Assembly: GCA_963715295.1 (NCBI GenBank)
Contig: CAVQRP010000006.1
Coordinates: 155,585 to 219,584, forward strand
Length of the DNA: 64,000 bases
Direction of reading: 5' to 3'
DNA from: an uncultured Chloroflexia bacterium
GTDB taxonomy: Bacteria > Chloroflexota > Limnocylindria > Limnocylindrales > CSP1-4
A program made the position numbers and the translations under genes. Position 1 is the first letter of the stretch. Every line of letters starts with the position of its first letter. Shown in pieces: positions 1,709-18,526 of this stretch. The notes beneath the pieces were generated by a model. That model did no database searches, had not been told where the DNA came from, and saw only the letters and a program-made list of their open reading frames with translations.

Positions 1709-1796
1709 TATCGTGCGATCGGAGCGCTGTAGGCTTTCTTTCTGAGCGTGATGTCCGAAGCGGCGAAGGCCTCGGTCATTGTGCGGTTCGCGAGCA
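1709..1796 (+). repeat. array repeat copy A (both arms present; promoter and tRNA-Pro segment deleted)
   Basis: Left core TATCGTGCGATCGGAGCGCTGTAGGC is joined after 8 nt to the right-arm sequence TGAGCGTG...GAAGCGGCGAAGGCCTCGGTCATTGTGCGGTTCGCGAGC. Confidence 0.8.
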
Positions 1797-1982
1797 CGAA
1801 ATCGTCCGACGCAGGCCTTGCCCAGCTGGCGCCCATGGTGCAGGGGTAGCGCAGCCTGCCACTTGTATCCGATCGCTGGGGTCCGGTGTATCAGTCCCGT
1901 GTCGCCTTCTCGAAGGCCGTCAGGAAGACCTCCCAGCCGGCATCGTCCAGGGGCGTGTGCGCGAGCATCGGGTACGTATGGC

Positions 1983-2010
1983 TTGCGATGCTGCCAATTG
2001 GTGCTAGCAT
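1983..2010 (+). promoter_or_regulatory. putative sigma-70-type promoter of the mazEF-like cassette (probably a leaderless mRNA)
   Basis: TTGCGA (1983-1988), a 16-nt spacer containing the palindrome CCAATTGG and an extended TGc, then TAGCAT (2005-2010). The ATG at 2017 lies 6 nt after the -10 element. Confidence 0.45.
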
Positions 2011-2016
2011 ATCGCG

Positions 2017-2226
2017 ATGGCATCGACAAGAAGCACGTTCACCATCGACCGAGCACTGGCCCAGCGTGCGCGCCACCTCGGGGTCAATGTCTCCGCGGCT
2101 GCTCGTGACGGCGTCGAGGCGGCGGTGCGAACGGCGATGGCGCGAGCAGACCGGGATGCCTACCGCAAACGACCCGAGCGACCGGATCCGTTCTGGTCTG
2201 ATGTCGAAGCCTGGAGCGAGGAGTGA
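2017..2226 (+). CDS. type II antitoxin (ribbon-helix-helix / MazE-like)
   Basis: 69-aa ORF that overlaps the downstream MazF-like gene by 4 nt. The N-terminus STFTIDRALAQRARHLGVNVSAAARDG is typical of RHH antitoxins. Confidence 0.7.
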   Translation: MASTRSTFTIDRALAQRARHLGVNVSAAARDGVEAAVRTAMARADRDAYRKRPERPDPFWSDVEAWSEE

Positions 2227-2531
2227 TACGGGGCGAGATCTGGTACGCGGAGGTCGGACGCAAGCGGCGGCCCGTGCTGATCTTGACTCGGACGGAGGTC
2301 ATCGACGTCCGTGCATTGGTGACCGTGGCGGAGGTGACCACGTCCATCCGCGGCATCGCCGCGGAAGTCGAGTTCGACGACGAGGAGGCCGGCCTCGACC
2401 GATCATCGGTCGTCAACTGCGATGGACTGCACACGATCACCAGGACCTCGCTGACGACGTACGTCGGCTCGGTCAGCGAAGCGACGATGGAGCGCGTCTG
2501 TTCGGCGATCGGCTACGCCCTGGGTTGTTGA
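2223..2531 (+). CDS. mazF: MazF/PemK family endoribonuclease toxin
   Basis: 102 aa. RGEIWYAEVGRKRRPVLILT... and ...SVVNCDGLHTI match the PemK/MazF fold signature. Coupled to the upstream antitoxin. Confidence 0.8.
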   Translation: MIRGEIWYAEVGRKRRPVLILTRTEVIDVRALVTVAEVTTSIRGIAAEVEFDDEEAGLDRSSVVNCDGLHTITRTSLTTYVGSVSEATMERVCSAIGYALGC

Positions 2532-2619
2532 GCGGCCAGCAGCACCGGCGGCGGACTTGGAGCATTGGTCCGTGGCAGATGGCATCTGCAACGGGTCGTA
2601 CCTCGGGAGTCCATCGAGC

Positions 2620-2830
2620 GTGTCGGTTGTGATACGAGCGCTGCAGGCCCATCGGTGTCGCTATCGAAGCGGGCTGTGCACCCCATCCACGCAGGGACTT
2701 CGTCGGGGTGTAGCGCGGCGGTAGCGCACATGCTTTGGGAGCCCACGAGGGGTTTGCGGTGAAGGCTCAGGGGTCCCACGCACGATGGGCTGAGCGGCGA
2801 AGGCCTCGATCATCGTGCGGTTCGCGAGCG
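2620..2830 (+). repeat. array repeat copy B (contains a tRNA-Pro 5' fragment at 2704-2742)
   Basis: Degenerate left core (GATACGAGCGCTGCAGGCCC), GTCGCTATCG box, and tRNA nt 1-39 with 2 D-loop differences. Then GGTTTGCGGTGAAGGCTCAGGGGTCC...GAGCGGCGAAGGCCTCGATCATCGTGCGGTTCGCGAGCG. Confidence 0.9.
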
Positions 2831-2928
2831 TCGTCCGCCCTCCTGCATGCAGCCATCGTGCGGTGCGAGGACCTTCGACTCACTGTCGTCAGCTCACAGA
2901 TACTGTGAGACTGCGTTACTGTGACACG

Positions 2929-3168
2929 ATGAAGAACATCACTGTCTCTGTACCTGACGACGTCTATCGCGCCGCTCGCATCCGAGCCGCGGAGGAGGGC
3001 CGATCAGTCAGTGGCATGGTCGCGACCTACCTGCGCTCGCTTTCCTACGATGACGCCGAGTTCTCGCGGTTGGAAGCGCAGCAGCGTCGCATCCAAGGTC
3101 AGATCACGCGCTTCCGAGCGATGGACCGCCTGACGCGCGATGAGGTTCACGAACGTGCGCTTCGTTGA
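2929..3168 (+). CDS. ribbon-helix-helix (CopG/VapB-like) antitoxin
   Basis: Internal ATG of track ORF 2815..3168. MKNITVSVPDDVYRAARIRAAEEGRSVSGMV is a typical RHH N-terminus. Direct repeats TACTGTGA x2 lie just upstream and could be an operator. Confidence 0.7.
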   Translation: MKNITVSVPDDVYRAARIRAAEEGRSVSGMVATYLRSLSYDDAEFSRLEAQQRRIQGQITRFRAMDRLTRDEVHERALR

Positions 3169-3571
3169 CACGAACATCCTCTTGTACGCGATCTCACGCG
3201 ACCCGGCGGAGGAGGGCAAAGCGATGATCGCGAACGAGATCATCGACGGTGGTGAGATCGGCCTGTCGGTGCAGGTCCTGCAGGAGTTCTACGTCCAAGC
3301 GACCCGGGCAACTCGAGAAGACGCCATCACCCACGATGAGGCAGCCGGACTGGTCGAGGCTTGGTGTCGGTTCCCGGCGCAGGTCACGAGTCTCGATGTG
3401 ATGCGAGCGGCGCTGTCGACTCGGAGTCGCTTCGGCATCTCCTACTGGGACGCGGCGATCCTCGAGGCCGCTCGTGCCCTTGGATGTTCAGTGGTGTTGT
3501 CCGAAGATCTCGACGATGCCACCGACTACGAGGGCATCCGCGTGGAGGACCCCTTCCGACACGCTGCCTGA
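3140..3571 (+). CDS. vapC: PIN-domain ribonuclease toxin VapC
   Basis: 143 aa with FVDTNILLYA (first acidic PIN residue) and WDAAILEAA motifs. Overlaps the antitoxin 3' end. A GTG at 3155 is an alternative start. Confidence 0.8.
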   Translation: MRFTNVRFVDTNILLYAISRDPAEEGKAMIANEIIDGGEIGLSVQVLQEFYVQATRATREDAITHDEAAGLVEAWCRFPAQVTSLDVMRAALSTRSRFGISYWDAAILEAARALGCSVVLSEDLDDATDYEGIRVEDPFRHAA

Positions 3572-3581
3572 AGGCCGTCGA

Positions 3582-4145
3582 TCACCACCCCTCGAGCGGT
3601 CGCACCGAGCGCATGGCGGCGGTCGCCTCGTCCATGTCGAAGACTGTCGGGTCGAAGTCCAGCGGCGCCCATTCGCGCAGGTGGTCGAGCTCGGGATGTG
3701 CGGGATCCGACAGCGCGTCAAGCAGGTCCTCGTAGCCCATTGGCCCCCCGCAATCCTCGGGCGGGCAAGCCATGCTTCCGGCCAGGCAGTTCGGACCATT
3801 GAAGTCCGACCGCTGCGGGCTGATTTCCTCGACCACGACGTCGTGCTCCCAGCCATCGCCGAAGTCGTAGTCCCATCGCAGCTTCGAGCCCACGCCGGGC
3901 AGTACATCATGTAGCTGAAACGCGCGTTCGTCGAGGTCATCGTCGGGCCACTCGGGGTCGGGCATCGCGTACTTGGCATCAGCGCCTTCGAAGGCGTGCA
4001 GGTGTCCACCGAGCCAGCCCATCGCTGCCTCCAGGATGGCTGCCAGCTCAGCCAGGTCGATGTCGGAGCGAACCGTGATCCGTCGCCACACCGGCGGCTT
4101 CACCGACCTCAGGGTGATCTTCAGCTGGTAGACGGTGTCCTCCAT
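3582..4145 (-). CDS. plasmid pRiA4b ORF-3 family protein
   Basis: Start MEDTVYQLKITLRSVKPPVWRRI (ATG at 4145). Hallmarks YDFGDGWEH and CPPEDCGG. This family is typical of mobile-DNA contexts. Confidence 0.8.
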   Translation of the reverse strand: MEDTVYQLKITLRSVKPPVWRRITVRSDIDLAELAAILEAAMGWLGGHLHAFEGADAKYAMPDPEWPDDDLDERAFQLHDVLPGVGSKLRWDYDFGDGWEHDVVVEEISPQRSDFNGPNCLAGSMACPPEDCGGPMGYEDLLDALSDPAHPELDHLREWAPLDFDPTVFDMDEATAAMRSVRPLEGW

Positions 4146-4274
4146 GTCGTCTCCTGGTCGGCGATGGCTACTCAGCCTGACTGATCGACTGTGTCGTCCC
4201 GCGCCATTGTGGCTGCTCGACGCAACCCGACCAGCGTATGCTCGTCGCTCAGCGCTTGGCTTAGTAGCCGCGTC

Positions 4275-4347
4275 ACAGCGGCATTCGAGCGCTGTAGGCC
4301 CCTCTGTGTCGCTATCGGGACGCCCGCCGCAGAGTGTTCCGGGAGCC
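4275..4347 (+). repeat. array repeat copy B2 (left arm plus collapsed tRNA fragment; right arm missing)
   Basis: GCGGCATTCGAGCGCTGTAGGCCCCTCTGTGTCGCTATCGGGACGCCCGC, followed by CGCAGAGTGTTCCGGGAGCC, a collapsed version of GCGCAGAGGTAGCGCACATGCTTTGGGAGCC. Confidence 0.7.
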
Positions 4348-4367
4348 CTTCGAGCCACGCCACCTGG

Positions 4368-4766
4368 TCACTCGCGAGGGAACACCTCTACCGAAGCCGC
4401 GTGACCGGGCTCGCGAGCGAGTCGGGCATCGCAGGTGACCAGCGGTGCACCGAGGGCCTCCGCGAGTGCCAGGAACGCCGCGTCATAGGCCGTCACGTTG
4501 TGGCGAAGCTCCCACATGCGGTCCGCGAGAGAGACGTGTGGGTAGCGCACGATCGTCAGATTCCCGAAGTCCATCCGTGCGTCGGCGGCGCGATCGTCAT
4601 TGATCGCTCCGGCGACCACGAGGCGACGCAGCGCATGCTGGAACTCCACATCGATCAGGTGCGGAGCATGCAGGTCGCCGTCGTTGATGACACGGTCGAC
4701 AAGACGTGCAACTCGGGGCTGGCCCGCCAGAACGCCGATGACGGCCGACGTATCGACCACGATCAC
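4368..4766 (-). CDS. vapC: PIN-domain ribonuclease toxin VapC
   Basis: 132 aa with MIVVDTSAVIGVL (PIN N-terminal acidic motif) and AYDAAFLALAEALGAPLVTCD. Overlaps the upstream antitoxin gene by 4 nt. Confidence 0.85.
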   Translation of the reverse strand: MIVVDTSAVIGVLAGQPRVARLVDRVINDGDLHAPHLIDVEFQHALRRLVVAGAINDDRAADARMDFGNLTIVRYPHVSLADRMWELRHNVTAYDAAFLALAEALGAPLVTCDARLAREPGHAASVEVFPRE

Positions 4767-4993
4767 GGGCGATCGCGACCCGAGCGTACGGCTCCAACGA
4801 TGAGGTCGATATCGGCGCCGCCCGAGCGGGATCCCGCGCGAACGATCACATCAGCGACAGGCGGACGCTCCGCCAGGCGCGTGATGTCCCTGAGCAGGTA
4901 ATCCGACAGTGACGTCCCAGCCGCGGCCGCCCGGGCACGCAGGGTCCGGTGGACATCGTCAGGCACGTTGCGAATCTGTATCGAGTGACTCAT
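4763..4993 (-). CDS. vapB: VapB/FitA-like ribbon-helix-helix antitoxin
   Basis: Internal ATG (4993) of track ORF 4763..5044. MSHSIQIRNVPDDVHRTLRARAAAAGTSLSDYL is typical of RHH antitoxins partnered with VapC. Confidence 0.75.
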   Translation of the reverse strand: MSHSIQIRNVPDDVHRTLRARAAAAGTSLSDYLLRDITRLAERPPVADVIVRAGSRSGGADIDLIVGAVRSGRDRP

Positions 4994-5003
4994 GCGGGTG
5001 ATG

Positions 5004-5057
5004 ATACACCCGAGTTGGGTGTATGACATGGTATCCGCATGCACGTGCGTACATGCG
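5004..5057. promoter_or_regulatory. palindromic operator-like sites upstream of vapBC
   Basis: Perfect inverted repeat ATACACCC-gagtt-GGGTGTAT (5004-5024), plus CCGCATG-n10-CATGCGG (about 5033-5057), directly upstream of the minus-strand vapB start. Confidence 0.45.
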
Positions 5058-5325
5058 GCGCCTCCGCACTTAAATCAGCGGCGGCTGACGATGCGCTCTG
5101 GTCGGTCATCTAGACGATCGCTACTTCGACAAGCTCCGATCGGCGTCCCCGTGAGTCTCCTGCTCGTCCGGGGCTGATGCTGCTCGAGGCCATGCCGCAG
5201 GCCCTCGGCGTCGCCAGCTGACCATCCTCCGTGAGCGCCAGGGCAGCGACCGCGCCGAGGTCGCGGGCATCGATGAACGCTCATCGATCTCCCTTCTGTC
5301 ATGCGTCTTCCGCTGAAGTGGCAGG

Positions 5326-5542
5326 TTATCGTGCGGTTCGAGCGCCGTAGGTCCATCTGTGTCGCTATCGGGGCGCCCGTGTGTACCCTAGTCCACGCAC
5401 GGATACCGTCGGGGTGTAGCGCAGAGGTAGCGCACATGCTTTGGGAGCCTACGACCGGTTTGCGGTGCAGGCTCCGGGGTCTCGAGCGTGGACCGCGAAG
5501 CGGCGAAGGCGTCGATCATCGTGCGGTTCACGAATGTGAGCG
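5326..5542 (+). repeat. array repeat copy C (contains a tRNA-Pro 5' fragment at 5410-5448)
   Basis: Complete unit: TTATCGTGCGGTTCGAGCGCCGTAGG, GTCGCTATCG, GTGTGTACCCTAG, and 39/39 identity to tRNA nt 1-39. The right arm ends ATCATCGTGCGGTTCACGAATGTGAGCG. Confidence 0.9.
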
Positions 5543-5732
5543 TGTTCGGTGATCACCGCTGCGCGGCCGCACGTCACCGGGTTCGCCAACTCGGCCGATT
5601 CGAGCTCAGTCTCACGGGTACAGACCACTGAGGTGCTGACGTGTTCGGGCACGCTCGGCCCCGGCCATCCTTGAGTTCGGCAAACGGCAGGTCCTCGGTC
5701 CAGATCCGAGTGTCGGCTCCAGCGACTTGAAC

Positions 5733-5762
5733 GAAGAAGCCGGCCGCTAGGCCGGCTTCTTT
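5733..5762 (-). terminator. stem-loop terminator downstream of 5808-6311
   Basis: GAAGAAGCCGGCC-gcta-GGCCGGCTTCTT(T) is a perfect 12-13 bp stem, with short T/A-rich flanks on both strands. Confidence 0.55.
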
Positions 5763-5807
5763 CATCGAGATGCGCTGGCGGAAGGCCTGCGCATCGGTGT
5801 TGGCCGA

Positions 5808-6311
5808 TCAGGCCTCGGCGGGAGCCTCGGTCTCCTCCGGAGCTGCCTCGGCAACAGCATCCAGGGCCTCGTCGGTCACGTCGATGGCTTCTACCGAGCC
5901 ACCGAGCTCAGCGAGCTTGCCGGTGATCGCACCAGCCTCTGCGGCGGTCGCCAGGACCCCGACGGCTGCCTTGCCGCCGGTCAGCTCCGCGCCGATACGG
6001 GCCTTGTCCGCATCGCTCATGCCCAGACCCTTGTGATGGAAGGCGCCAAGGATCCCGCCGCCGACCACGCCAGCCAGCAACGCCGGGGGCGCCACGACCG
6101 CGAGGAGGAGGCCGATGCCGGCGCCCTTTGCCTTGCTGCGCGAGCCCATCTTGTGGGTCTTCAGCCCACCCTTGTCGTCAAGGACGAGCACGCCGATCGA
6201 GGTGAGCTTCACCTCGTCGCTTGCCTTGTCCCACGCCTTCAGCGACTCGACCGCCGCGTCCGCAGCAGCCTCGTCCGCAAAGACCCCTAAGACCACCTGG
6301 TTCTCAGCCAT
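5808..6311 (-). CDS. DUF1269-like membrane protein
   Basis: 167 aa. N-terminal VVLGVFADEAAADAAVESLKAW domain, a glycine-zipper TM segment (GAGIGLLLAVVAPPALLAGVVGGGILGA), then GMSDADKARIGAELTGGKAAVGVL. This architecture is typical of DUF1269. Confidence 0.65.
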   Translation of the reverse strand: MAENQVVLGVFADEAAADAAVESLKAWDKASDEVKLTSIGVLVLDDKGGLKTHKMGSRSKAKGAGIGLLLAVVAPPALLAGVVGGGILGAFHHKGLGMSDADKARIGAELTGGKAAVGVLATAAEAGAITGKLAELGGSVEAIDVTDEALDAVAEAAPEETEAPAEA

Positions 6312-6483
6312 GTTTGTTGCTCCTTCGATATGTCGTTAGTGCGACGGAGGATATTTCCGTTGCGCGACTCGACCGGCGGCCGAGGCGCTGTGCGCGATGA
6401 GCTGATCCCAATCGAGCGGAACCTCAAGACTACCCCCTGCGCCGCGATGACGACGCCAGGTGCCAGCAGACGGATCGTGCTGA

Positions 6484-7116
6484 CTACTCTTCTGGTCGGA
6501 GGCTCTGGCAGGTCTCGTCGTTCTTGATCGCGGTGCTGAGCTCGTTGGCAGGCTCGAGTTGCCGGATTTGGTGGAACGTTTGCTTGGCATCCTTGAGCAA
6601 CCCCTCGATGTCGCCCTTGATCTCATCGACACCGGTCGCGATCCCTTCGGCACCCGAGCCGCCGAGTGCTTCGGCTGCGCTCTTGATGTCCCCAACGCCG
6701 ACTTGAACGTCGCTGGTCAGTTGCACGAGGTCATCTTTCGCCTTGTTGCCGTCGTCCGTCTCGGGTGCGCCGATGGCTCCGAGCTGATCGGCGAGGTCCT
6801 TGGTCGCTTGCTCGGCGTCAGCGAACCCTTGTGACAGCGCGTCCCTTGAGATGCCGTTCTTGATATCGGCCGCGATGGTCTTGACCGAGTCTTCCCACGT
6901 CGCGATGGCACCGCACACATCGCTTGCCCACACGGCCGCCGTGGTGGCCTCCTGGGTCGCGGCGGGCTGAGTCGTGGTCGCAGCAGTCGTGGCCGCCGCC
7001 GCCTGCGTCGCCTCGCTGTCAACACCGCTGCATGCCACGATCAGCAGCGTGGCGCTCGCGGCCAGAGCCAGCAACTGCACCGGAAGGCGCACTCGTACTC
7101 GTTGTGTCATCTCCAC
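6484..7116 (-). CDS. secreted lipoprotein, function unknown
   Basis: 210 aa. Signal peptide with lipobox LLIVAC, a Thr/Ala-rich linker, then a helical acidic domain. Confidence 0.65.
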   Translation of the reverse strand: MEMTQRVRVRLPVQLLALAASATLLIVACSGVDSEATQAAAATTAATTTQPAATQEATTAAVWASDVCGAIATWEDSVKTIAADIKNGISRDALSQGFADAEQATKDLADQLGAIGAPETDDGNKAKDDLVQLTSDVQVGVGDIKSAAEALGGSGAEGIATGVDEIKGDIEGLLKDAKQTFHQIRQLEPANELSTAIKNDETCQSLRPEE

Positions 7117-7206
7117 CCCTCCTCATCATCTTCCTACAGGCGCAGCGCGCTCTCACTGGCCTCGTTGACGATGGGACTTGGAGGACCACGTGTCGATGGG
7201 CCGGCC

Positions 7207-7432
7207 AGCCCCTACCGCGGAGAGCTTTCATGGACGCGGCCGGAATGCAGTCCAGGAAGACCTCCACGCAGCGCATCAGGTCGAGGTTGCCGAAGAGCTT
7301 CTGCGACGTCTCTGACGATGGCACACCACCGCTGAAGTCAAACGTACCCAGGCTGGTCTCCACACGATCTGGGGTCGTGATCCTGGACGGGATCGGCGTG
7401 TTGCAGCCCTTGGGGATGTCGACGTTGCTCAT
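7207..7432 (-). pseudogene. N-terminal fragment of a DUF1254/DUF1214-family gene
   Basis: MSNVDIPKGCNTPIPSRITTPDRVETSLGTFDFSGGVPSSETSQKLFGNLDLMRCVEVFLDCIPAASMKALRG resembles the first ~75 aa of ~450-aa DUF1254 proteins. Similarity is lost after that, and the lipoprotein gene starts at 7116. Confidence 0.45.
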
Positions 7433-7633
7433 GGGGTCCTTCCAGCTCGTGCGCGTGCCGGCAGGGTGCTGCTTCGGGTTTCTGAGGGGCCGGAGAGCGA
7501 GGCGCAACCCTTCATCGCATCTTGCCAGAGCCCGTCTCGTCGCTTTGGTCCAGCTGGCGAGCCACAGAGATCGCGCGATCGGGCCCCGGCACTCGGCCGA
7601 CGGGCCAGGTGTGTCGAGGACGGCGTCGATCGG

Positions 7634-7840
7634 CGGCGGTTCACCTTCGAGCGCTGCAGGCCCCCTGCTATCGCTTGAGGGCCGCGCTGTGTACCCTAGT
7701 CACGCACGACCTCGTCGGGGTGTAGCGCAGAGGTAGCGCACATGCTTTGGGAGCCTTCGGGGGGTACGGCGCAGGCTCCGGGGTCCTGAGCGTGGTGGAT
7801 GGAGCGGCGAAGGCGTCGATTATTGTGTGGTTCGTGAGCG
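7634..7840 (+). repeat. array repeat copy D (contains a tRNA-Pro 5' fragment at 7716-7754)
   Basis: Left core CGGCGGTTCACCTTCGAGCGCTGCAGGCCCCC, GCTATCG box, GTGTACCCTAG, and 39/39 tRNA identity. The right arm ends GATTATTGTGTGGTTCGTGAGCG. Confidence 0.9.
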
Positions 7841-7929
7841 TGCGAGCCCAGAGATCTGCCTCGCACAGATCTATGGTCCTGTACGCTCGTCCCCTGTGCT
7901 AAGGTGACTACCTTGGTGACCACTTAGGC

Positions 7930-8178
7930 ATGAGGTACGACATGGCGGAGATCGGTATCAAGGAACTGAAGGCGACCACCTCATCGGTCATCGACGAGGT
8001 CGAAAGCGGCTCTGCCTACGTCGTCACACGGCGCGGCCGACCTGCCGCGGTTCTCTTGCCGGTCGACGAGGCCGAGGACCTCGTTCTTGCCAATGCCGAC
8101 GAGTTTGTCCGCCAGCGTCGACTCGCCCGCGCTGACTACGCCAAGCGGCGGACGGTCAGGCTGGAGGACATCGACTGA
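7930..8178 (+). CDS. Phd/YefM family antitoxin
   Basis: 82 aa with IGIKELKATTSSVIDEVESGSAYVVTRRGRPAAVLLPVDE. An alternative start is at 7942. Inverted repeat AGATCTG-n7-CAGATCT and GGTGAC direct repeats lie upstream. Confidence 0.8.
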   Translation: MRYDMAEIGIKELKATTSSVIDEVESGSAYVVTRRGRPAAVLLPVDEAEDLVLANADEFVRQRRLARADYAKRRTVRLEDID

Positions 8179-8471: not shown

Positions 8472-8517
8472 CACTTGGCAAAGCGGTCGCGACTAGGCAA
8501 ACAGATCGAATGTGCAT

Positions 8518-9130: not shown

Positions 9131-9190
9131 GATGAGTGTTGTCGGTGAGCCACCGGGGTTCGACCAAACCGGCCTGATGGAGGTGTTCCC

Positions 9191-11090: not shown

Positions 11091-11164
11091 AGTGAGTCTC
11101 CCGCGATAATCACCCCCACGGACGATACATCCTACGCTACGTGGCGCGCCAAGGGCAGACCGCG

Positions 11165-12196: not shown

Positions 12197-12249
12197 AGCG
12201 GACGCCGAGCGGCAGACCAGCCGCTGGATCGGCGTGTGAGGGCGATCCG

Positions 12250-12990
12250 ATGCGACTGGCACCATCCCTGCATCGACTCGGCGAGGCGATCGTCAGCTGC
12301 TACCTCCTCGAGGAGGCCGGCGAGGTCACCATCATCGACGCGGGCGTGCCCGCCTACTACGGCGACCTGACGGCCGAGCTCGCGGCCATGGGCCGCACGA
12401 TCGAGGACGTCCGCGCGCTCGTGCTGACCCACGGCCACGACGACCACATCGGCTTCGCCGAGCGACTGCGTGCCGAGCGCGACGTGCCCGTCAGCATCCA
12501 CGAGCTCGACGCGGCCCTCGCGCGCGGCCAGGTCGGCAACCCGAGCGCCGGCATGGGCGAGCGCAGGCTCCGTTCCCTGCTGCACTACATGCTGTGGCTC
12601 ATGCGTCACGGCGGGATGCGGACCACGGCGCTGACGGAGGTCGGCACCTTCGACCCGGGCACGACGCTGGACGTGCCGGGCGCGCTGCGCGTCATCCACA
12701 CACCCGGACACACGCACGGCAGCGTCACCTTCCATGCGCCGGGGCACGACGCCCTCTTCGTGGGTGACGCGCTGGCCACGGACGCGGTCATCACCGAGCG
12801 CCGTGGTCCGCAGGTCTGTCCCTTCGCTGCCGATCCCGACGAAGCGCTGGCCTCGCTGGCGAGCATCGAGGAGATCGAGGCGCGCTGGCTGCTGCCCGGC
12901 CACGGGGAGCCCTGGACCGATGGCGTCGCGGCCGCGGTGGCCGCCGCGCGCGAGGTCGGCATCGGCCACCTCGCTCGGCCGAAACGGTGA
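12250..12990 (+). CDS. MBL-fold metallo-hydrolase
   Basis: ATG at 12250 inside the long track ORF 11554..12990. THGHDDHIG (HxHxDH zinc motif), HTPGHTHGS, and a later LPGHG. Confidence 0.8.
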   Translation: MRLAPSLHRLGEAIVSCYLLEEAGEVTIIDAGVPAYYGDLTAELAAMGRTIEDVRALVLTHGHDDHIGFAERLRAERDVPVSIHELDAALARGQVGNPSAGMGERRLRSLLHYMLWLMRHGGMRTTALTEVGTFDPGTTLDVPGALRVIHTPGHTHGSVTFHAPGHDALFVGDALATDAVITERRGPQVCPFAADPDEALASLASIEEIEARWLLPGHGEPWTDGVAAAVAAAREVGIGHLARPKR

Positions 12991-13025
12991 AGCCCATGTT
13001 CGTGTCTGTTCAAGGAGGTGACGAG

Positions 13026-14522
13026 ATGAGTGAGCAGCGTTCTCCTGATGGCCTGTATGTCGAGGAGTCCGGGACCCCGGGCTCGCCGGCCATCGTCTTC
13101 ATCCATGGAGCCGGCCAGAGCAGCCGCGAGTGGCGTCAGCACATGGACAGGCTCCCTGGCTTCCACTGCCTGGCGCCAGACCTGCCCGGGTTCGGGCGAA
13201 GCAACCATCTCGGGTCCGCGACCAAGGAGCGCGTGGCGGACCTGCTGGCCGCCTCATCGAGGAGCGCGTCCCGACGCAAGCGCGCCAGCGTCGTGGGCAT
13301 CTCCTCGGGCGGGCTGCACATCCACGCCCTGCTCGATCGCCACCCCGACCGCGTCGAGCGGGCTGTCATCGACGGCTCACCCCCCTTTGGCACGCCGCGC
13401 ATCGGCCGCGCGATCATGCGTCTGTGCATGCTTGCCATGGCGCCATTCATCCACACTCGCCCGCTCCTGGCGCTGTTCCGCGACACCCACGACCCGGAGG
13501 ACCTGCGGGTCGCATCACGCCTGGAGTTCGGGCGCGTCGTCGGGGAGTGCTTCGGGGAGTTCGCAGCCCTCGATGCGCCGAGCCCCGCCCTGCTCATCGC
13601 CGGCGAGAAGGAGAGCATCGTCCGATCGATGAACGCCGCCCTGGCCGAGGTCATGCCCCGGGGCGAGGCCTGGTACGTCCCCGGCCTCGGACACTGCTGG
13701 CAGAAGGCGGATCCCGACCTGCACATCCGCACGGTCGAGGCCTGGGTCAGCGGACAGGAGCTGCCGTCCGAGCTCCGTCGAGAAGCCGCTCCCTCGCCGG
13801 CCAAGGTCGAGCAGGTCCGGCGCATGGGCCCGGAGTTCTGGTACGTCAGGCACAAGGGTCGGCTCATGCGCTTGGCGAGGTTCTACTTCCGGCCCTTCCG
13901 GAAGCCTCTCGCCGAGGCCTACGGCAAGGCGGCAGGGGAGGCCATCGCCAGGGACGCGCTCGGGCGCTTCGAGGTCCTGCTGCCGGACATCCCCTACATC
14001 GGCGGTGGCGAGAACAGCATGACCATCACCCTCGTCAAGGTCGCGGCCAAGCTGGCGATGTACCGAGCACTCCGGGCCCGCGGGGCATCGGAGGAGGAAG
14101 CGGCCCGCCTCATCCACCTCGGGGAGGTGGCCTTCTACAAGAGCGTTCCGATGCGCTGGGTGATGCGCTTGCAGGGTCGAGGCTTCCTCAGCCGCAGAGG
14201 CGTGGATATGTGGAGACGCATCGCTGCCACCAGCCAGGAACGCCGCTACCCGGACGACTGGGTGTACGAGATCGTCGAAGGCGACGGAAGCGACTCCGGG
14301 ATGCGGCTGGACTGTATCGAGTGCGGGGCCGTCAAGTACCTCGACCGCGAAGGTGCCTCCGAGTACGCCCCGTATCTCTGCTGGATCGACTATCCCCAGT
14401 TCGCCGCGATGGGCCTGCGGCTCGACCGCACCGAGACCATCGCGCAAGGCGGCCAGCGCTGCGACTTCCGGGTGAGTCGGGGTGAACCAACTCACGTCGA
14501 GCCCGAGTTCCTGCACGTCTGA
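13026..14522 (+). CDS. fusion protein: alpha/beta hydrolase domain plus ATC-hydrolase-like domain
   Basis: ATG at 13026 lies 5 nt after AAGGAGGTG. N-terminal IVFIHGAGQS...VVGISSGG (nucleophile elbow). The C-terminal ~230 aa are a paralog of 257-955 (PYIGGGEN, ERRYPDDW, YLCWIDYP, CDFRV). A possible compensated double frameshift lies at about 13248-13290. Confidence 0.75.
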   Translation: MSEQRSPDGLYVEESGTPGSPAIVFIHGAGQSSREWRQHMDRLPGFHCLAPDLPGFGRSNHLGSATKERVADLLAASSRSASRRKRASVVGISSGGLHIHALLDRHPDRVERAVIDGSPPFGTPRIGRAIMRLCMLAMAPFIHTRPLLALFRDTHDPEDLRVASRLEFGRVVGECFGEFAALDAPSPALLIAGEKESIVRSMNAALAEVMPRGEAWYVPGLGHCWQKADPDLHIRTVEAWVSGQELPSELRREAAPSPAKVEQVRRMGPEFWYVRHKGRLMRLARFYFRPFRKPLAEAYGKAAGEAIARDALGRFEVLLPDIPYIGGGENSMTITLVKVAAKLAMYRALRARGASEEEAARLIHLGEVAFYKSVPMRWVMRLQGRGFLSRRGVDMWRRIAATSQERRYPDDWVYEIVEGDGSDSGMRLDCIECGAVKYLDREGASEYAPYLCWIDYPQFAAMGLRLDRTETIAQGGQRCDFRVSRGEPTHVEPEFLHV

Positions 14523-14598
14523 GTCCGCTCGTCGCACGGGAGACCTGGATCCGCGACGGTGAGGCCCGTCACGGTGTACGACCTCGAACGCCCAAGGG

Positions 14599-14807
14599 TT
14601 ATCGTGCGGTTCGAGCGCTGTAGGTCCCTCGGCGTCGCTATCGGGGCGCCGTGTGTACCCTAGTCAGGCACGAACACTCGTCGGGGTGTAGCGCAGCGGT
14701 AGCGCACATGCTTTGGGAGCCGCTGAGCGCTCTGCGGCGAAGGCTCCGGGGTCCTGAGCGCGATGGCCGGAGCGGTGAAGGCCTCGATTATTGTGCGGTT
14801 CGCGAGC
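14599..14807 (+). repeat. array repeat copy G (contains a tRNA-Pro 5' fragment at 14682-14720)
   Basis: Complete unit: TTATCGTGCGGTTCGAGCGCTGTAGG, GTCGCTATCG, GTGTGTACCCTAG, and 38/39 tRNA identity. The right arm ends GATTATTGTGCGGTTCGCGAGC. Confidence 0.9.
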
Positions 14808-14893
14808 ACGACCGGCTCGACTGGCGTCGCGCACGACCGTCGCCACCGATACACCCCGACGGTGCGCAGCCGCCTCGAGTCCTCGGTAGGCGG

Positions 14894-17800
14894 CTACAGG
14901 CTGGCCTGGAGCTCGTGGACCCGCTGGAGGTGGGCGGTCGCGCCGAGCTCGTCGAGGACGGTCGCAGCCCTGGAGAGGTCCTCGACGGCCGCTTCTGTCT
15001 GCCCAGCCGCGATGCGGTCGCTAGCCCGCTGCTCGTAGAGCTCAGCCTCGGCCAGCCGGTCACCGAACTGGCGGGCCAGCTCGAGGGCGCGCTCGTAGCG
15101 CTCGAACTCGACGCGGCCGACGCCCGACCGGGCCCGGGCCGTCTGCAGCAGTAGCTCGGTCTGCTCGATCTTGACCGGCATGAACTGGCAGAACACGGCC
15201 AGGTCCGCGCTGGCCTCGAAGGCGATGGCCGCCTGGGCCGCGTCGCCATCGCGCAGGTGCTGCTCGCCGATGACGCCGTGGCCGACCATGGCGCAGGCCT
15301 TGTTGCCGACCCGGTCGGCGACCGAGATGGCCTTGGTGGCGTACTCGATGGCGGCGGTCGAATCGCCCCGGATGCCCTCGACGATCCCGCGCGCCAGGTC
15401 GGCGTCGAGGCTGGCGTTGGGATCGCCGCTGAGAACGCCGAGCTCGTAGCCTCGGTCCGTCCACTCGACGGCCTTCTCGAACTCGCCCAGATGGCCGTAG
15501 GCCGTACCCAGTTGTCCCGCGGCCACCGAGGCGATGTAGGGCTGGCCGGACTCGATGAGGGTCGGGATGGCCCGCTCCCATGACTCGATGGCCTCGGCGA
15601 ACTCGCCGGACGCATAGTGGGCCTGCCCGGTGGCCGCGACGGCCATGGCTATCAACTCGGGTGACCCGCTCGCCTCGGCAAGTTCGGTGGCTCGCCGCAG
15701 CGCCGTCGCCAGCTCTGGACTGGAGCGATACTGTTCGCCACTGAGCGCGCGAGTCACGCCGATCTCAAGGTAGGCCCGTGCCGACATCGCCGGGTCTTCC
15801 AGGATCTCGCCATCGGCGATCACCGCTTCGAGAAGCGCCACGGTCTGATCGAGCGGCACGAAGTCGCCACCGGCTTCGGCCTGAAGGTAGCGAAGCTCGG
15901 CCCGCAGGCGCCGGGCCGGCGTGTCGATGGAGTCGTCGTCGGCCAGCAGGGCAAGCGCCCGCCGTGCGAAGTCGACGGCCTCGTGCCGGGCGAACCGTGA
16001 GCGGGCATGGCGAGCGGCGAGCGCCAGGTATTCGATGGCTCGGGCGCGATCCTCGGCTCGCTCGAAGTGGTGAGCGAGCACGGGCGCCATGTCGTCGCGG
16101 TGGTCCCCATACAGCGCCAGCAGCGTCTCCGCGACCTGGATGTGCAGCGAGCGCCGCTCCTGCTTGAGCAGTGACTCGTAGGCCGCGTCCTGGATGAGGG
16201 CATGACGGAAGAGGTACTCGAGTTCAGGCATCGAGGCGGCCAGCGCGATGAGCCCGGCGCCCTCGAGAAGACTCAGCTCACGCCCGATGCCCCCGCCTGA
16301 CCCGGTCGTCACGATGGCTCCTTCACGATCTGGTCGAGCACGCTGACGGGGAAGGTGCGGCCGATGACCGAGGCTACGCGCAGGACCCGGCGTGCCTCGC
16401 TGGGCAGGCGATCGATGCGGGCAAGGAGCAGGCCGTGCAGCGTCTCGGGGATCTCGACATCGACGACCTTGGCGGTCGCGGTCCAGCGGCCGTCCCGCAA
16501 CTCGATAGCCTCGCGGTCGATGAGCATGCGCACGATCTCCTCGACGAAGAGCGGGTTGCCCTCGGCCCGCGCCAGGATCATGGCCCGGGTGGCGGCCGGC
16601 AGGGAATCGATGGCCAGCAGGTTCGCCACCAGGCGCTCGCCGTCCTCGGCCCCCAGCGGCTTGAGGCGAAGGTCGACCAGGGCCTCGCCGAATGCGTCCC
16701 CGGCTGCCCCGATGAGCTGCCAGCCCGGCACCTCGCGCTCTGCGCGACTGGCCACCACCCACAGCACGGGCATGGTAGACAGCGCCGGGACGAGCGGCAG
16801 CAGGAGTGCCACCGAGGCGTCATCGGTCCAGTGCACGTCGTCGCAGACCATGACCACGGGCTGGGTCCGCGCCGCACCCGCGATGAGACTCGAGATGGAC
16901 TCCGTGTAGCGGAGCTGCAGCGTGCGCGGCTCCATGTTCGCCAGCCGTTCCTCGCCGGCCGCGTCCAGCGGCAGCGAGAGGAGGTGGCTGAGGATGGGAC
17001 CGAACTCCGCGGCGTCTCCGCCCACCAGATCGTCGAGTCGGCGTGCCAGCTTCTCGCTGGCCTCGTCGGCGGGGATGCTCTCGAGCGGTTCGGGCAGGCC
17101 CAGCAGCGCGCGGACCAGGTCGATGGCCAGGTGCAGCGGCAGGTTGCGGCCGTAGCTGACCGTGCGGGCCTCGACCCAGCCGAAGCCGTCGGCCTCCGCG
17201 ACATCGCGCAACTCCCGCAGCAGGCGGCTCTTGCCGATGCCCGGCTCGCCCACGACCAGAGCCATGCGGCCGATGCCGCCACGCACGGGGGCGAGGGTGG
17301 CTACGAGCTGCGCCAGCTCGGCATCCCGCCCCACCATTCGACTGCTGAGACCGGCCACGCCGCGTACCGATCTGAGGATGCCCGTACGGCCCAGGACCTC
17401 GTAGGCCTCGACCGGTTCGGCTTTGCCCTTGACGCTCACGGGGCCGACGTGGCGGCTCTCGATCGCGCCGCTCACCCGGCTGTACGTCTCGCCGGTGATC
17501 ATGATGCCGCCGGGCCGGGCCTCCGACTGCATCCGCGCGGCCACGTTCAGCGTGTCGCCGTAGATGCGTGAGTCCCGGGTGGTGCCGCCCGCGGCGGTGT
17601 CGCGCACCACGACCTCGCCGCTGTTGATGCCGACCCGGATCTGGAATTCGATGCCCTGGGGTCGCAGCTCCGCGGCGAACGTGTCGATGCTGCCGACCAT
17701 CTCGATGGCGGAGCTGACCGCCCGGGCGGGGTCGTCCTCGTGGGCCGAGGGCAGACCGAACAGGGCCATGAAGCCATCGCCGGTGTGCGACGCGACCCAG

Positions 17801-18051
17801 CCCTCGTAGCGCTCCACAGCGCTGGTCATGATGGCCATGGCGCGTTCCATGGTCATGGCCCAGTCCTCGGGGTCCATCGCCTCTGCGAGGCTCGTCGAGC
17901 CGACGACGTCGACGAACAAGGCCGTGACCGGACGACGTTCACCCGTTACATGATCAGGCTGCACCACATGGATGCTAGCGGACGGTGCCTGCACCAGTCC
18001 ATCGGACACTGGACGGGTGCCACGCCGGCGACGGGCGTGCTGGAGCTCCAC
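14894..18051 (-). pseudogene. class III adenylate/guanylate cyclase - P-loop ATPase - TPR protein (about 1050 aa), one frame disruption
   Basis: ORF 16309..18051 carries the cyclase domain (VTALFVDVVGST...GDGFMALFG...GINSGEVVV) and P-loop GEPGIGKSRL. ORF 14894..16762 continues in another frame with the conserved helical region and TPR repeats. The frame change is near 16310-16330. Confidence 0.7.
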
Positions 18052-18368
18052 GTTGAGGAGATGCGCATCCTCGGCCGGTTCCCGGTCGCCACAGGCTACC
18101 TAGGCCACCCGGGCCATGTCGGCGTGGTAGGTCGCGACCAGTCGTGCGAAGGCCGCCTCGTCGCCGGCCCCCGCGAGCGCGATCGTGGAGGCGACGACCT
18201 GACCGCCCATCGCCTGAGGGTTCATGTCCTATAGATGCGTCGCGAGTAGATGCGTCGCGAGGCCGTTGTGCTACAGAGTTTCCGCAGATGGGCCGCGAAG
18301 GCGCGTACCCCCTCGCTACTCCAACACGAGTCTCCCAGCGGCGCCAGAGGAGAACGGCCCGTGTCGCG

Positions 18369-18451
18369 TTATCGTGCTATTCGAGCGCTGTAGGCCCTCC
18401 GCTACCGGCTCGAGAGCCGCGCTGTGTACCCTATCCACGCACGAACCTCGT
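18369..18451 (+). repeat. array repeat copy H: left arm and promoter-like segment directly upstream of the intact tRNA-Pro
   Basis: TTATCGTGCTATTCGAGCGCTGTAGGCCC...GCTACCG...GTGTACCCTATCCACGCACGAACCTCGT is homologous to the left arms of copies C, E and G. No right arm follows the tRNA. Confidence 0.85.
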
Positions 18452-18526
18452 CGGGGTGTAGCGCAGAGGTAGCGCACATGCTTTGGGAGCATGAGGTCGC
18501 GGGTTCGATCCCCGCCACCCCGACCA
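18452..18526 (+). tRNA. tRNA-Pro (anticodon UGG), CCA encoded
   Basis: Manual cloverleaf: acceptor CGGGGTG/CACCCCG, D arm GCGC-agaggta-GCGC, anticodon arm CATGC-TTTGGGA-GCATG, variable AGGTC, T arm GCGGG-TTCGATC-CCCGC, discriminator A, then CCA. Confidence 0.9.

Follow-up and report, generated by a model that had tools for sequence, protein, structure and literature searches.

Gene cassettes without integrases arrayed at tRNA-Pro(UGG) in Limnocylindria-type Chloroflexota

How does a chromosome come to carry, upstream of one intact tRNA gene, a row of copies of that gene's 5′ half with small gene groups between them? This question is raised by the window, the whole 64-kb stretch of DNA analysed here. 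Its host is a soil or sediment bacterium of the Chloroflexota, represented by Limnocylindria-type MAGs, rather than the high-GC Gram-positive bacterium assumed in an earlier, sequence-only reading. We read the array as a series of integrase-less gene cassettes anchored at tRNA-Pro(UGG).

Structure of the array

ARAGORN predicted a single tRNA in the window, tRNA-Pro(tgg) at 18452-18526 (+), in agreement with the sequence-only reading, which had placed the only intact tRNA-Pro(UGG) gene there. The 3′ half of this tRNA occurs only once. Upstream of it, a composite, attachment-site-like unit of ~215 bp is repeated and bounds each cassette, consisting in order of an L arm, the tRNA upstream region, tRNA nt 1-39, a variable heptamer and an R arm. 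A whole-unit profile was built for nhmmer and used to scan the window. It recovered six full units (E 1e-47 to 1e-69), the terminal L part (18368-18492) and remnants at 1742-1800 and 4283-4323. Matches to the tRNA half (0-2 mismatches) agree with nhmmer on the six sites, as had been claimed. In the window the arm motifs, which are direct repeats, matched 10 and 7 times, where shuffled sequences gave expectations of 0.7 and 0.14; every match lay on the + strand and inside 1710-18387, and none was found when the other 45 kb was searched. All array copies have one orientation, and their span is restricted to 1.7-18.5 kb of the window. The features are as follows.

1-1708, +: leftmost visible cassette, cut by the window start; ATC_hydrolase-domain gene 104-955, GNAT acetyltransferase 948-1631 (Pfam)
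1709-1800, +: degenerate unit, L motif (ATCGTGCGATCGGAGCGCTGTAGGC) joined to distal R arm (sequence, motif matches, nhmmer profile positions 161-219)
1801-2616, +: cassette C0; CcdA-like antitoxin 2017-2226, MazF/PemK toxin 2223-2531 (Pfam)
2617-2840, +: unit J1; tRNA 1-39 copy 2704-2742, 2 mismatches (nhmmer, 224 bits)
2841-4282, both strands: cassette C1a; RHH antitoxin and PIN toxin 2815-3571 (+), PRiA4_ORF3 protein 3582-4358 (-) (Pfam)
4283-4323, +: L-arm remnant at the decayed C1a/C1b junction (nhmmer profile positions 17-57)
4324-5322, -: cassette C1b; VapC PIN toxin 4368-4766, FitA-like RHH antitoxin 4763-5044 (Pfam)
5323-5544, +: unit J2; exact tRNA 1-39 copy 5410-5448 (tRNA-half matches, nhmmer)
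5545-7645, -: cassette C2; DUF1269-like protein 5808-6311, 210-aa putative secreted protein 6484-7116 (Pfam)
7646-7842, +: unit J3, without outer L motif; tRNA copy 7716-7754 (nhmmer profile positions 18-217)
7843-8574, +: cassette C3; Phd/YefM antitoxin 7930-8178, frameshifted ParE/RelE toxin 8185-8471 (sequence, Pfam)
8575-8797, +: unit J4; tRNA copy 8661-8699 (tRNA-half matches, nhmmer)
8798-11187, both strands: cassette C4; NHL-repeat-like protein 9531-10346 (+), cupredoxin-like protein 10408-10692 (-), unassigned ORFs (Pfam)
11188-11372, +: unit J5, without outer L motif; tRNA copy 11241-11279 (tRNA-half matches, nhmmer)
11373-14594, +: cassette C5 (Rfam, Pfam), comprising the next three features
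11458-11545, +: c-di-GMP-II-GAG riboswitch (Rfam)
11554-12990, +: methyltransferase plus MBL-fold ORF (Pfam)
12987-14522, +: alpha/beta-hydrolase plus ATC_hydrolase ORF (Pfam)
14595-14818, +: unit J6; tRNA copy 14682-14720 (tRNA-half matches, nhmmer)
14819-18367, -: cassette C6; nucleotide cyclase, AAA_16 and TPR protein as two overlapping ORFs 16309-18051 and 14894-16762 (Pfam)
18368-18451, +: terminal L part, L motif and tRNA upstream region (nhmmer profile positions 6-129)
18452-18526, +: intact tRNA-Pro(UGG), putative attachment site and right end of the array (ARAGORN; Rfam tRNA, 71.5 bits)
18527-23207, +: core right flank; DUF2568 19073-19426, GGDEF 20113-21915, Cys/Met PLP enzyme 21966-23207 (Pfam)

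The copy that the sequence-only reading reported at 1709 is indeed a degenerate unit: its L motif runs directly into the distal R arm, an internal deletion having removed the promoter region together with the tRNA half. A separate copy reported at 8518 was not called by the nhmmer profile, and by eye it is only R-arm-like sequence extending the L arm of the unit at 8575. No unit contains a sigma-70 consensus match, so "promoter" is a purely positional designation. The array probably continues leftward beyond the window start, judging from the L arm retained by the unit at 1709 and from the gene at 104-955, which is paralogous to a cassette gene (bases 255-774 and 13822-14341, the latter in C5, are 76-77% identical). 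Homologues also lie within C5-type cassettes in L014 and L022.

Cassettes range in content from a single gene up to an operon and have genes on both strands. Their cargo includes toxin-antitoxin pairs, hydrolases, methyltransferases, a riboswitch-controlled operon and signalling proteins. Four toxin-antitoxin pairs had been described as complete; three are intact, and the fourth, in C3, has the frameshifted toxin.

Related arrays in other genomes

The arm pattern matched 24 public-genome chunks, giving ~16 species-level MAGs after one false match was set aside. Overall, the same architecture was found in about 16 species-level Chloroflexota MAGs and about 48 true metagenome contigs, while none of the viral, plasmid and phage records searched carries the unit. 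Related arrays invariably terminate at tRNA-Pro, between conserved flanks. In four genomes for which both flanks were sampled, Cys/Met-PLP, GGDEF and DUF2568 genes lie on one side and AzlDC and MsrAB on the other, and the right-flank gene order of the window recurs beside tRNA-Pro in L077, L078 and L079. The distance from tRNA to flank varies from 4.3 kb to more than 32 kb across arrays (to AzlD, 4.3 kb in L078 and L079, 6.3 kb in L077 and more than 12 kb in L076). In another array at least 15 units are spread across 30 kb, and unit-to-unit spacing is 0.85-9.2 kb (median 2.3 kb). This type of locus is common to Limnocylindria-type Chloroflexota.

Exchange of cassettes between genomes

Cassettes of the window occur elsewhere at 84-96% identity with different neighbours, whereas for these pairs of genomes identity in the adjoining core flank is no more than 67-75%, which argues that cassettes move between species. 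The commonest is C3, present in 13 other sources (82-93% identity). C0 was found in L019, L004, L063, CAVZWI and CAWDAI (94-96%, with other neighbours), C1a in L009, CAWDAI and CAVQJC (93-96%), C2 in L019 and L043 (88-94%), and C5 in CAVZWI and L024 (91-92%). C1b is 96-97% identical in L004 and L027, and in L004 it is preceded by a full unit where the window has only the remnant at 4283-4323. The entire C4 cassette is present in L001 (94.7%), with units at both ends.

Furthermore, the order of cassettes varies between genomes, and in 49 pairs of units the shared cassette lies on just one side (left in 25, right in 24). With the variable array length, these bear out the expectation of the sequence-only reading that cassette polymorphism would be delimited by the repeat. 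The tRNA-adjoining cassette also differs, being C6 in the window, C5 in L024/L077 and C1b in L015/L078. The tRNA is intact each time, and a complete L part precedes it in every array. Unit integrity rises weakly with nearness to the tRNA (rho 0.46, not significant). Metagenome contigs were checked for terminal overlaps and a circle-junction signature, and no circular cassette was found; no empty site was seen in the arrays compared.

Boundary and conservation within the units

In 84 of the 84 partial copies compared across species, the match to the tRNA breaks off at nt 39|40: positions up to nt 39 are 93-100% identical, nt 40 only 1%. The anticodon loop occupies nt 31-37. Segments from the L motif to the tRNA covary (r 0.36-0.58), as do adjacent segments from the heptamer to Rvar (r 0.44-0.54), whereas covariation of the heptamer with left-block segments is 0.00-0.16. 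The linkage break coincides with the nt 39|40 boundary.

Between units bearing unrelated cassettes, the R2 and R-motif blocks keep 86-95% identity, equal to that of the tRNA half itself, while the variable spacers separating them reach only 54-65%. This difference makes the arms look functional. The unit interior is weakly linked to either neighbouring cassette; excess identity declines across the outer L motif and returns only outside the R motif, so exchange occurs near the outer motifs too.

Origin and maintenance of the array

As the sequence-only reading had noted, no recombinase is encoded in cis. A Pfam search of every substantial ORF in the window gave no tyrosine or serine recombinase. 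Nor did phmmer with seven tyrosine/serine recombinase seeds in 391 kb of arrays including the window (best E 0.016), or the same seeds in L076-L078. In four bridging loci, precomputed Pfam annotation covering 10 kb on each side of MsrAB listed none, and the right flank, sampled over 3-4 kb in four genomes, contained none either. The central actor of the integration model set out next is consequently hypothetical.

The geometry of the window fits the proposal of repeated site-specific integration with an attP carrying the 5′ part of the tRNA: six 5′ halves lie displaced upstream, the only intact gene stands at the right end, and there is no extra 3′ half. We judge it somewhat probable that an unlinked recombinase inserted integrase-less cassettes into the tRNA gene at its anticodon loop. 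A cassette would be transiently circular and bear one complete unit (attP). A site-specific recombinase, most likely a tyrosine integrase binding the arm motifs, would recombine the circle with chromosomal tRNA-Pro, crossing over within the anticodon loop. Joined to the resident 3′ half, the L part and 5′ half brought in by the circle would restore an intact, expressed tRNA, and the old 5′ half would be shifted left and joined to the incoming R arm. Repeated rounds would stack cassettes, and the terminal L part at 18368-18451 would come from the last arrival, C6. With no gene for it in the array or next to it, the recombinase would have to work in trans, encoded at another place in the chromosome or by a helper element that uses the same site. 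Mobilisation in trans, proposed by the sequence-only reading, is something we infer, as neither recombinase nor circular form was found. The 5′-distal part of a tRNA gene is a rare but documented recombination target, according to a passage of PMC6563490 citing Zhao & Williams 2002. Homologous exchange between conserved units is probably a secondary contributor to shuffling.

Homologous recombination may also have had the larger role, a possibility we consider rather unlikely. One or a few ancient site-specific integrations would have made the tRNA-half unit, and the ~215-bp units would then have served as portable homology: after DNA uptake, RecA-dependent double crossovers or unequal crossing-over would gain, lose, replace and exchange cassettes with no dedicated recombinase. 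The missing recombinase and circles agree with this, as does an array in which two diverged C5-type cassettes lie in tandem. Linkage breaks fall in the longest conserved stretches (tRNA half, R2/R-motif and L-motif blocks), and homologous recombination inside such blocks would leave the linkage pattern seen here. Descent of all units from one ancestor would account equally well for their uniform boundary at nt 39|40. Left unexplained, however, is the conservation of the direct-repeat arm blocks far above coding flanks and spacers. The tRNA has, moreover, been rebuilt behind a complete L part with varied adjoining cassettes, and transfer has occurred between genomes whose core identity is only ~70%, a divergence at which homologous recombination usually works poorly.

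A further reading, which we think improbable, sees the array as the accumulated remains of decayed integrative elements: tRNA-Pro-specific, integrase-bearing islands or prophages would have integrated repeatedly and lost their integrase and transfer genes by deletion, leaving att-flanked cargo. Such decay has been proposed for cis-mobilizable elements (CIMEs), some Dehalococcoides ssrA islands and tycheposon islands, and tandem partial tRNA/tmRNA repeats can arise by this kind of accretion (PMC5704250; PMC3146451; tycheposon preprint). Some units here are truncated or internally deleted, so decay does occur. Yet more than 100 units over about 390 kb contain no integrase, integrase fragment, replication or transfer gene, nothing between units (maximum about 9 kb) is of island or phage size, and random deletion of integration modules would not leave complete conserved arms on both sides of most cassettes. 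The comparators, in contrast to the arrays here, readily yield integrase-bearing elements: 16 ssrA islands carry an integration module with dsiB (PMC3146451), and 937 integrase-carrying elements are reported in Prochlorococcus (tycheposon preprint). That the unit is a dispersed repeat of generic type (REP or MITE-like), or an artefact of assembly, unconnected to the tRNA, has almost no credibility. Units are short, non-coding and repeated, but the exact arm pattern is restricted to the tRNA-Pro locus in contigs of 0.7-1.7 Mb, the arm motifs of the window are confined to the array, and the architecture was found independently in ENA, NCBI and JGI assemblies. The generic REP/MITE reading is refuted by the public-genome search, in which each true match is preceded by the adjoining tRNA-Pro 5′ half and unit orientation is that of the tRNA throughout.

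The likeness to tycheposons drawn by the sequence-only reading is loose, since tycheposons carry an integrase and their island material mostly lacks clear boundaries (tycheposon preprint). Its likeness to integrons holds only as an analogy: the units as single strands show no attC-like folding, no IntI is adjacent to the array, and cassette genes lie on both strands. As a whole, the locus looks like an undescribed integron-like gene-capture site.

A repeat unit built on the 5′ half of tRNA-Pro

ARAGORN found a single tRNA in the 64 kb, an intact tRNA-Pro(tgg) gene. Upstream of it lie six copies of its nt 1-39, at 2704, 5410, 7716, 8661, 11241 and 14682, with 0-2 mismatches each, and the 3′ half is present in the window in one copy only. 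Each 5′ half is part of a longer unit of about 215 bp, delimited by repeat finding together with an nhmmer profile built from four units. This geometry largely bears out the structural part of an earlier, sequence-only reading of the locus, which had described co-oriented units, six of them with a 5′ half, and one intact tRNA-Pro gene at the right end.

Units, remnants and tRNA gene at the array (window positions)
1709-1800, remnant unit, left motif joined directly to the distal right arm, middle deleted
2617-2840, full unit
4283-4323, remnant unit, fragment of the left arm only
5323-5544, full unit
7646-7842, full unit
8575-8797, full unit
11188-11372, full unit
14595-14818, full unit
18368-18451, terminal left part, continuing into the intact tRNA gene
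18452-18526, + strand, intact tRNA-Pro(tgg)

A consensus was derived from 66 units. Its left side comprises, in order, ATCGTGCGGTTCGAGCG-CTGTAGGCCC, a variable spacer, GCTATCG, a further spacer and GCTGTGTACCCTA-(T)CCACGCACGA, followed by tRNA nt 1-39; on the right side the tRNA half is followed by C and a variable heptamer, GCGGCGAAGGCTCC-GGGGTCC-GAGCG, a spacer and GAGCGGCGAAGGCCTCGATTATTGTGCGGTTCGCGAGCG. Several motifs recur as direct repeats, namely ATCGTGCGGTTCG(C)GAGCG (once per arm), GCGGYGAAGGC(C)TC (twice in the right arm) and GAGCG (five times). The two arm motifs matched the window 10 and 7 times, against 0.7 and 0.14 matches expected, and all matches were on the + strand and confined to 1710-18387, with none in the remaining 45 kb.

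When units next to unrelated cassettes are compared, identity is 86-95% in the R2 and R-motif blocks, as high as in the tRNA half (92-96%); it drops to 54-65% in the inter-block spacers and, immediately beyond the unit, to the essentially random level of about 27%. Conserved blocks with freely varying spacers are the pattern expected of protein-binding arm sites, and judged by this pattern the arms look selected. No match to the sigma-70 consensus was found inside any unit; we infer a promoter role for GTGTACCCTA only from its fixed position upstream of the sole functional tRNA. Rfam returned nothing in the units besides the intact tRNA, and single-strand folding of both halves of two units (one or both strands) gave z-scores of -0.18 to +1.32 relative to shuffled sequences.

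Distribution and genomic context of the arrays

The exact degenerate right-arm pattern matched 24 chunks of a one-genome-per-species collection, 50 metagenome contigs and no viral contigs. All true matches belong to MAGs labelled 'uncultured Chloroflexia', Chloroflexota or Ca. Limnocylindrales, and the high-GC Gram-positive host assumed in the sequence-only reading was wrong. In every true match the right arm directly follows a tRNA-Pro 5′ half and all units point in the same direction, and the arrays end at an intact tRNA-Pro(tgg) wherever their end is visible. Contigs as long as 0.7-1.7 Mb carry the pattern at the tRNA-Pro locus and nowhere else, which rules out a dispersed repeat of the REP/MITE kind; the rest of the window (45 kb) has no copies either. 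The lineage-wide cassette array is real and, apparently, undescribed so far; a search for cassette arrays of this sort in Limnocylindria or Chloroflexi found nothing within a limited collection of papers.

Two coding-region matches were set aside. A 28-nt stretch identical to the right arm (GGCGAAGGCCTCGATCATCGTGCGGTTC) occurs in an Armatimonadetes MAG (L021, 5454-5478) and in a near-identical metagenome contig (L040, 13140-13164); it lacks the other unit parts and is probably a chance match in GC-rich, codon-biased sequence. Units were also seen at the end of contig 8 (L016; CAVQJC010000008.1, 96-100 kb) of a MAG that has a 32-kb array on contig 5. A contig placed in a different bin of the same sample (L003) matches this contig-8 stretch at 97-99% identity, and strain mixing or mis-binning is more likely than a second array locus.

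The context of the locus was retrieved through the left-flank gene MsrAB in four genomes (L076-L079). On the right-hand side, all four have the order Cys/Met-PLP enzyme, GGDEF, small ORF, DUF2568, (SRPBCC), tRNA-Pro and array, which is the right flank of the window gene for gene. Beyond the array, the order is AzlD, AzlC, MsrAB, epimerase and FemAB-like gene, and further on URO-D, GalK and DUF3160. In more distant relatives, at approximately 69% MsrAB identity, synteny is lost. The tRNA and AzlD are separated by 4.3 kb (L078), about 4.3 kb (L079), 6.3 kb (L077) or more than 12 kb (L076). The array extends over at least 18.5 kb in the window, and CAVQJC010000005.1 carries at least 15 units across at least 30 kb.

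A VapBC-type PIN module lies between AzlC and MsrAB in L076 (9477-9875) and L077 (9475-9873) and is missing from L078. It is 87% identical to window cassette C1b (4368-5044), and no unit is detectable beside it, so one toxin-antitoxin module is present inside the array, as a cassette, and also close by outside it. In L079, extra PIN and VapB-PIN genes (13919-15105) interrupt the otherwise conserved left flank between the FemAB-like gene and a conserved gene of approximately 312-320 aa. This region as a whole seems prone to acquiring toxin-antitoxin modules.

Cassette content

Units are spaced 0.85-9.2 kb apart (median 2.3 kb, 45 intervals), and the longest cassette examined is a 7.5-kb copper and two-component operon in L061, a related array locus. 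The window cassettes, which carry genes on either strand, are as follows, from left to right.

Cassettes of the window array
C0, CcdA-like antitoxin and MazF toxin
C1a, RHH antitoxin and PIN toxin, with PRiA4_ORF3
C1b, FitA-like antitoxin and PIN toxin
C2, DUF1269-like protein and secreted protein
C3, Phd antitoxin and frameshifted ParE/RelE toxin (8185-8471)
C4, NHL-like protein and cupredoxin
C5, c-di-GMP-II-GAG riboswitch, methyltransferase/MBL and alpha/beta-hydrolase/ATC_hydrolase
C6, split cyclase/AAA_16/TPR gene

Bases 1-1708, with ATC_hydrolase and GNAT genes, resemble one more cassette, truncated at the window edge, because the unit at 1709 retains its left arm and 255-774 is a 76-77% identical paralogue of part of C5. 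To the right of the tRNA, the 45 kb encode ordinary core metabolism (GlnA, PEP carboxylase, sugar catabolism, ABC transporters). The stretch 40000-50000, with sugar and branched-chain-type ABC transporter genes, has a G+C content of 0.66-0.68 against approximately 0.70 around it, and contains overlapping ORF calls at 44.5-48.7 kb. Across the loci, a family census of 96 ORFs included methyltransferases, hydrolases, beta-lactamase-fold and MBL proteins.

The C5 aptamer (RF03169) is full-length, lies at 11458-11545 (+), approximately 85 nt beyond the right arm, and directly precedes the methyltransferase/MBL/hydrolase operon. RF03169 matches score 47-58 bits against a gathering score of 40. Seven more copies were found at five other loci.

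Further c-di-GMP-II-GAG copies
L024, 4715-4802
L001, 7006-7091 and 1322-1409
L022, 2049-2135 and 5486-5572
L018, 4792-4879
L014, 6125-6213

Since the aptamer is conserved in these copies, the C5-type cassette constitutes a mobile riboswitch-controlled operon. Near the C5 riboswitch, C6 encodes a nucleotide cyclase, and a GGDEF diguanylate cyclase (20113-21915) is among the first core genes to the right of the tRNA.

Several cassette genes of the window may be decaying. The overlapping C6 ORFs on the minus strand (16309-18051, cyclase and AAA_16; 14894-16762, TPR) look like one gene of approximately 1100 aa split by a frameshift, the C3 toxin is frameshifted, and a 478-aa ORF (11554-12990) fuses methyltransferase and MBL through a low-complexity stretch, these being two separate genes in L077.

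Exchange of cassettes between species

Window cassettes recur elsewhere at 84-96% identity and in different orders, for example C2…C0-C5 in L019, C1a-C3 in L009 and C0-C1b…C3 in L004. The cassette adjoining the tRNA is C5 in L024 and L077, and C1b in L015 and L078. Pairwise comparison of 66 units flanked on both sides gave 25 pairs with a common left neighbour only, 24 with a common right neighbour only and 1 pair with both in common. These differing orders and one-sided sharing constitute the cassette-level polymorphism bounded by the repeat that the sequence-only reading had called for. For the same genome pairs, we compared shared cassettes with the core flank, i.e., the DNA to the right of the tRNA.

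Identity of core flank and shared cassettes to the window
CAVQJC: core flank 74.7%; C1a 95.7%, C3 91.9%
CAWDAI: core flank 73.9%; C0 93.6%, C1a 94.8%
L024: core flank 66.9%; C5 92.2%
L015: core flank 69.9%; C1b 85.0%

The cassettes are far more alike than the core flanks, a sequence contrast that shows horizontal exchange.

Search for a recombinase and for carriers

We searched 2,815 ORFs of 80 aa or longer from six-frame translation, covering the window and the genome and metagenome loci (391 kb), by phmmer with seven seeds: lambda Int, a P4-type integrase (checked against real phage integrases), XerD, an actinobacterial-type tyrosine recombinase, gamma-delta resolvase, phiC31 and a large-serine consensus. 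No recombinase was found; the best hit (E 0.016, 12 bits) was in the wrong frame. Pfam scans of the window ORFs returned no integrase, resolvase or transposase families, and among the top 25 families listed in the Pfam and PHROG censuses of the 96 locus ORFs there was no recombinase family with at least two members; the 25 Pfam families listed include no primase or helicase either. The precomputed Pfam annotation of the four MsrAB-centred loci, 10 kb on either side and taking in the whole array plus 3-4 kb of right flank in three of the four, likewise contained no recombinase, and neither did L076-L078 with the same seven seeds. The absence of a recombinase noted from the window sequence therefore extends to 391 kb of arrays.

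Individual candidates were rejected as well. A syntenic 312-aa gene with weak matches to recombinase seeds encodes a secreted Pro/Thr-rich protein; PRiA4_ORF3 is too rare in the arrays to be a mobility gene, and a 233-aa ORF (8924-9625) proved non-homologous and is possibly a spurious frame.

No cassette in the sampled DNA contained an integrase fragment, transfer gene or replication gene, and no element longer than approximately 9 kb occurred in the sampled arrays. A master or carrier element was sought among viral contigs (two patterns) and in plasmid and phage collections, where only the generic tRNA-Pro part matched. Circular cassettes were sought as contigs with terminal overlaps, of which there were none, and the search for circle junctions yielded nothing beyond a tandem pair of diverged C5-type cassettes and a single coincidental match.

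Comparison with known systems

Functionally, the closest known system is the large sedentary chromosomal integron or the CALIN (a cluster of attC sites lacking an integrase), although the defining features of these fail here. As in integrons, long one-directional arrays hold small cassettes without a recombinase, delimited by recombination sites that all point the same way; many cassettes are toxin-antitoxin modules, their order differs between species, and the recombinase is not self-encoded. In contrast to integrons, there is no intI-attI platform beside the array, insertion would be at a tRNA anticodon loop rather than at attI, and the units are double-arm sites of approximately 215 bp, with a tRNA 5′ half and direct repeats, that lack the single-strand hairpin potential of attC. 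Furthermore, integron cassettes are mostly single promoterless co-oriented ORFs, whereas genes here lie on both strands and some form multi-gene operons. The integron label of the sequence-only reading is therefore not retained, there being no attC hairpins, adjacent IntI or co-oriented promoterless ORFs.

Its other label, tycheposon, fares no better. The tycheposons of Prochlorococcus carry their own tyrosine recombinase and replication genes (primase or helicase), number 1-2 per genome, and lie in islands whose material mostly lacks clear boundaries (bioRxiv 10.1101/2020.12.28.424599). Likeness is confined to islands by specific tRNAs, including tRNA-Pro(tgg), to partial tRNA copies, and to newcomers pushing older material away from the tRNA; the cassettes described here are the opposite in being cleanly bounded by a full unit and in none having a recombinase.

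Within the same phylum, the nearest case is that of the Dehalococcoides ssrA islands, which are arranged in tandem and bounded by 20-bp repeats of the ssrA 3′ end; 16 of them carry the serine integrase DsiB as part of a six-gene integration module, and some lack the module and were suggested to be cis-mobilizable (PMC3146451). Both systems stack multiple islands at a single-copy small-RNA gene between direct repeats of part of that gene, but the repeat here consists of the 5′ 39 nt of tRNA-Pro plus arms of approximately 175 bp, and no integration module is present.

Recombination with the 5′-distal part of a tRNA is a documented rarity (PMC6563490, citing Zhao & Williams 2002). In the citing paper's description, through which we make the comparison, such elements likewise supply the tRNA 5′ part, and with it the upstream region, and leave a displaced 5′ fragment at the far junction; unlike the cassettes, they are single and encode an integrase. 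As in classical tRNA islands, the locus has direct repeats of a tRNA part and a rebuilt tRNA gene, but it lacks an element-encoded integrase next to the att site. We classify it as an integrase-less cassette form of site-specific tandem integration at tRNA genes.

Site of exchange and competing explanations

In 84 partial tRNA copies, every position up to nt 39 matches the tRNA with 93-100% identity, against 1% at nt 40. The boundary falls at nt 39|40 in all 84, and position 40 is C in 80 of them. The match ends two bases beyond the 7-nt anticodon loop (nt 31-37, linear numbering). Covariation, measured on pairwise-identity vectors of unit segments, separates the unit into two blocks. The L motif, CTGTAGG, L spacer, promoter region and tRNA covary on the left (r 0.36-0.58), adjacent segments from the heptamer through R1 to the R spacer covary on the right (r 0.44-0.54), and values between the heptamer and the left-block segments are 0.00-0.16. 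Unit interiors are only weakly tied to the adjoining cassettes. For a shared left cassette, excess identity starts at +0.50 and is down to about +0.1 once the outer L motif has been crossed; for a shared right cassette it is visible only outside the R motif, so exchange also takes place near the outer motifs.

We lean towards the explanation that integrase-less circular cassettes were inserted at the tRNA-Pro anticodon loop by an unlinked recombinase. A crossover in the anticodon region would predict the two covarying blocks, yet homologous recombination in the most conserved stretches would be expected to break the units in a similar way. Cassette exchange by homologous recombination after an ancient founding event is, in our judgement, a rather unlikely account of the arrays, and accretion of decayed integrase-bearing elements a decidedly improbable one. 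The latter fits the description of CIMEs, which are decay products of ICEs or IMEs found beside functional elements, e.g., those related to ICESt1 (PMC5704250). Like CIMEs (PMC5704250), each cassette lies between att-like units without integration and transfer genes, in tandem at a tRNA gene, with a recombinase presumed to come from elsewhere. However, within the sampled DNA there is no sign of decay from an ICE or IME and no integrase-bearing relative or partner, and, unlike CIMEs, the cassettes are uniformly small, arrays reach at least 15 units, and the architecture is common to approximately 16 species.

Under insertion by an unlinked recombinase, each cassette would integrate as a circle carrying one complete unit. 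The crossover would lie in the tRNA-Pro anticodon loop, where the incoming left part and 5′ half would rebuild the tRNA and the displaced old 5′ half would become joined to the incoming right arm, and repeated events would stack the cassettes. The enzyme would most plausibly be an arm-binding tyrosine integrase encoded elsewhere or on a helper element. A host Xer-type enzyme could conceivably be responsible instead. In Xer-dependent modules (IMEX, pdif), a 28-bp dif-like XerC/XerD site flanks each module, whereas the unit here is approximately 215 bp long with arm repeats rather than a bare dif site.

As a tentative extension, Limnocylindria-type Chloroflexota could possess a separately evolved, integron-like form of gene capture. 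A dedicated unlinked recombinase would act on double-stranded sites of approximately 215 bp, circular cassettes would enter and leave at the anticodon loop from a pool common to different species, and junctions carrying the tRNA upstream promoter region might read into the next cassette.

Implications

To our knowledge, integrons are the only well-understood system that stockpiles many small recombinase-less cassettes at one chromosomal site. The arrays described here differ from them in site architecture (two arms around a tRNA 5′ half in place of a folded attC) and in phylum, which is largely uncultured, and they are possibly a second solution to gene capture. They also provide a clean case of reversed tRNA targeting, in which the element must bring the tRNA promoter region, repeatedly at one site. 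Annotation pipelines keyed to integrases or attC sites would overlook the locus entirely. The unit offers a sequence handle in the search for the putative recombinase, a site-specific enzyme whose long, well-defined target could make it useful as a tool. The locus would also be a defined hotspot at which abundant Chloroflexota of soil, sediment and freshwater gain and lose genes. Should a recombinase prove to act in trans, the capture of genes as cassettes has arisen more than once.
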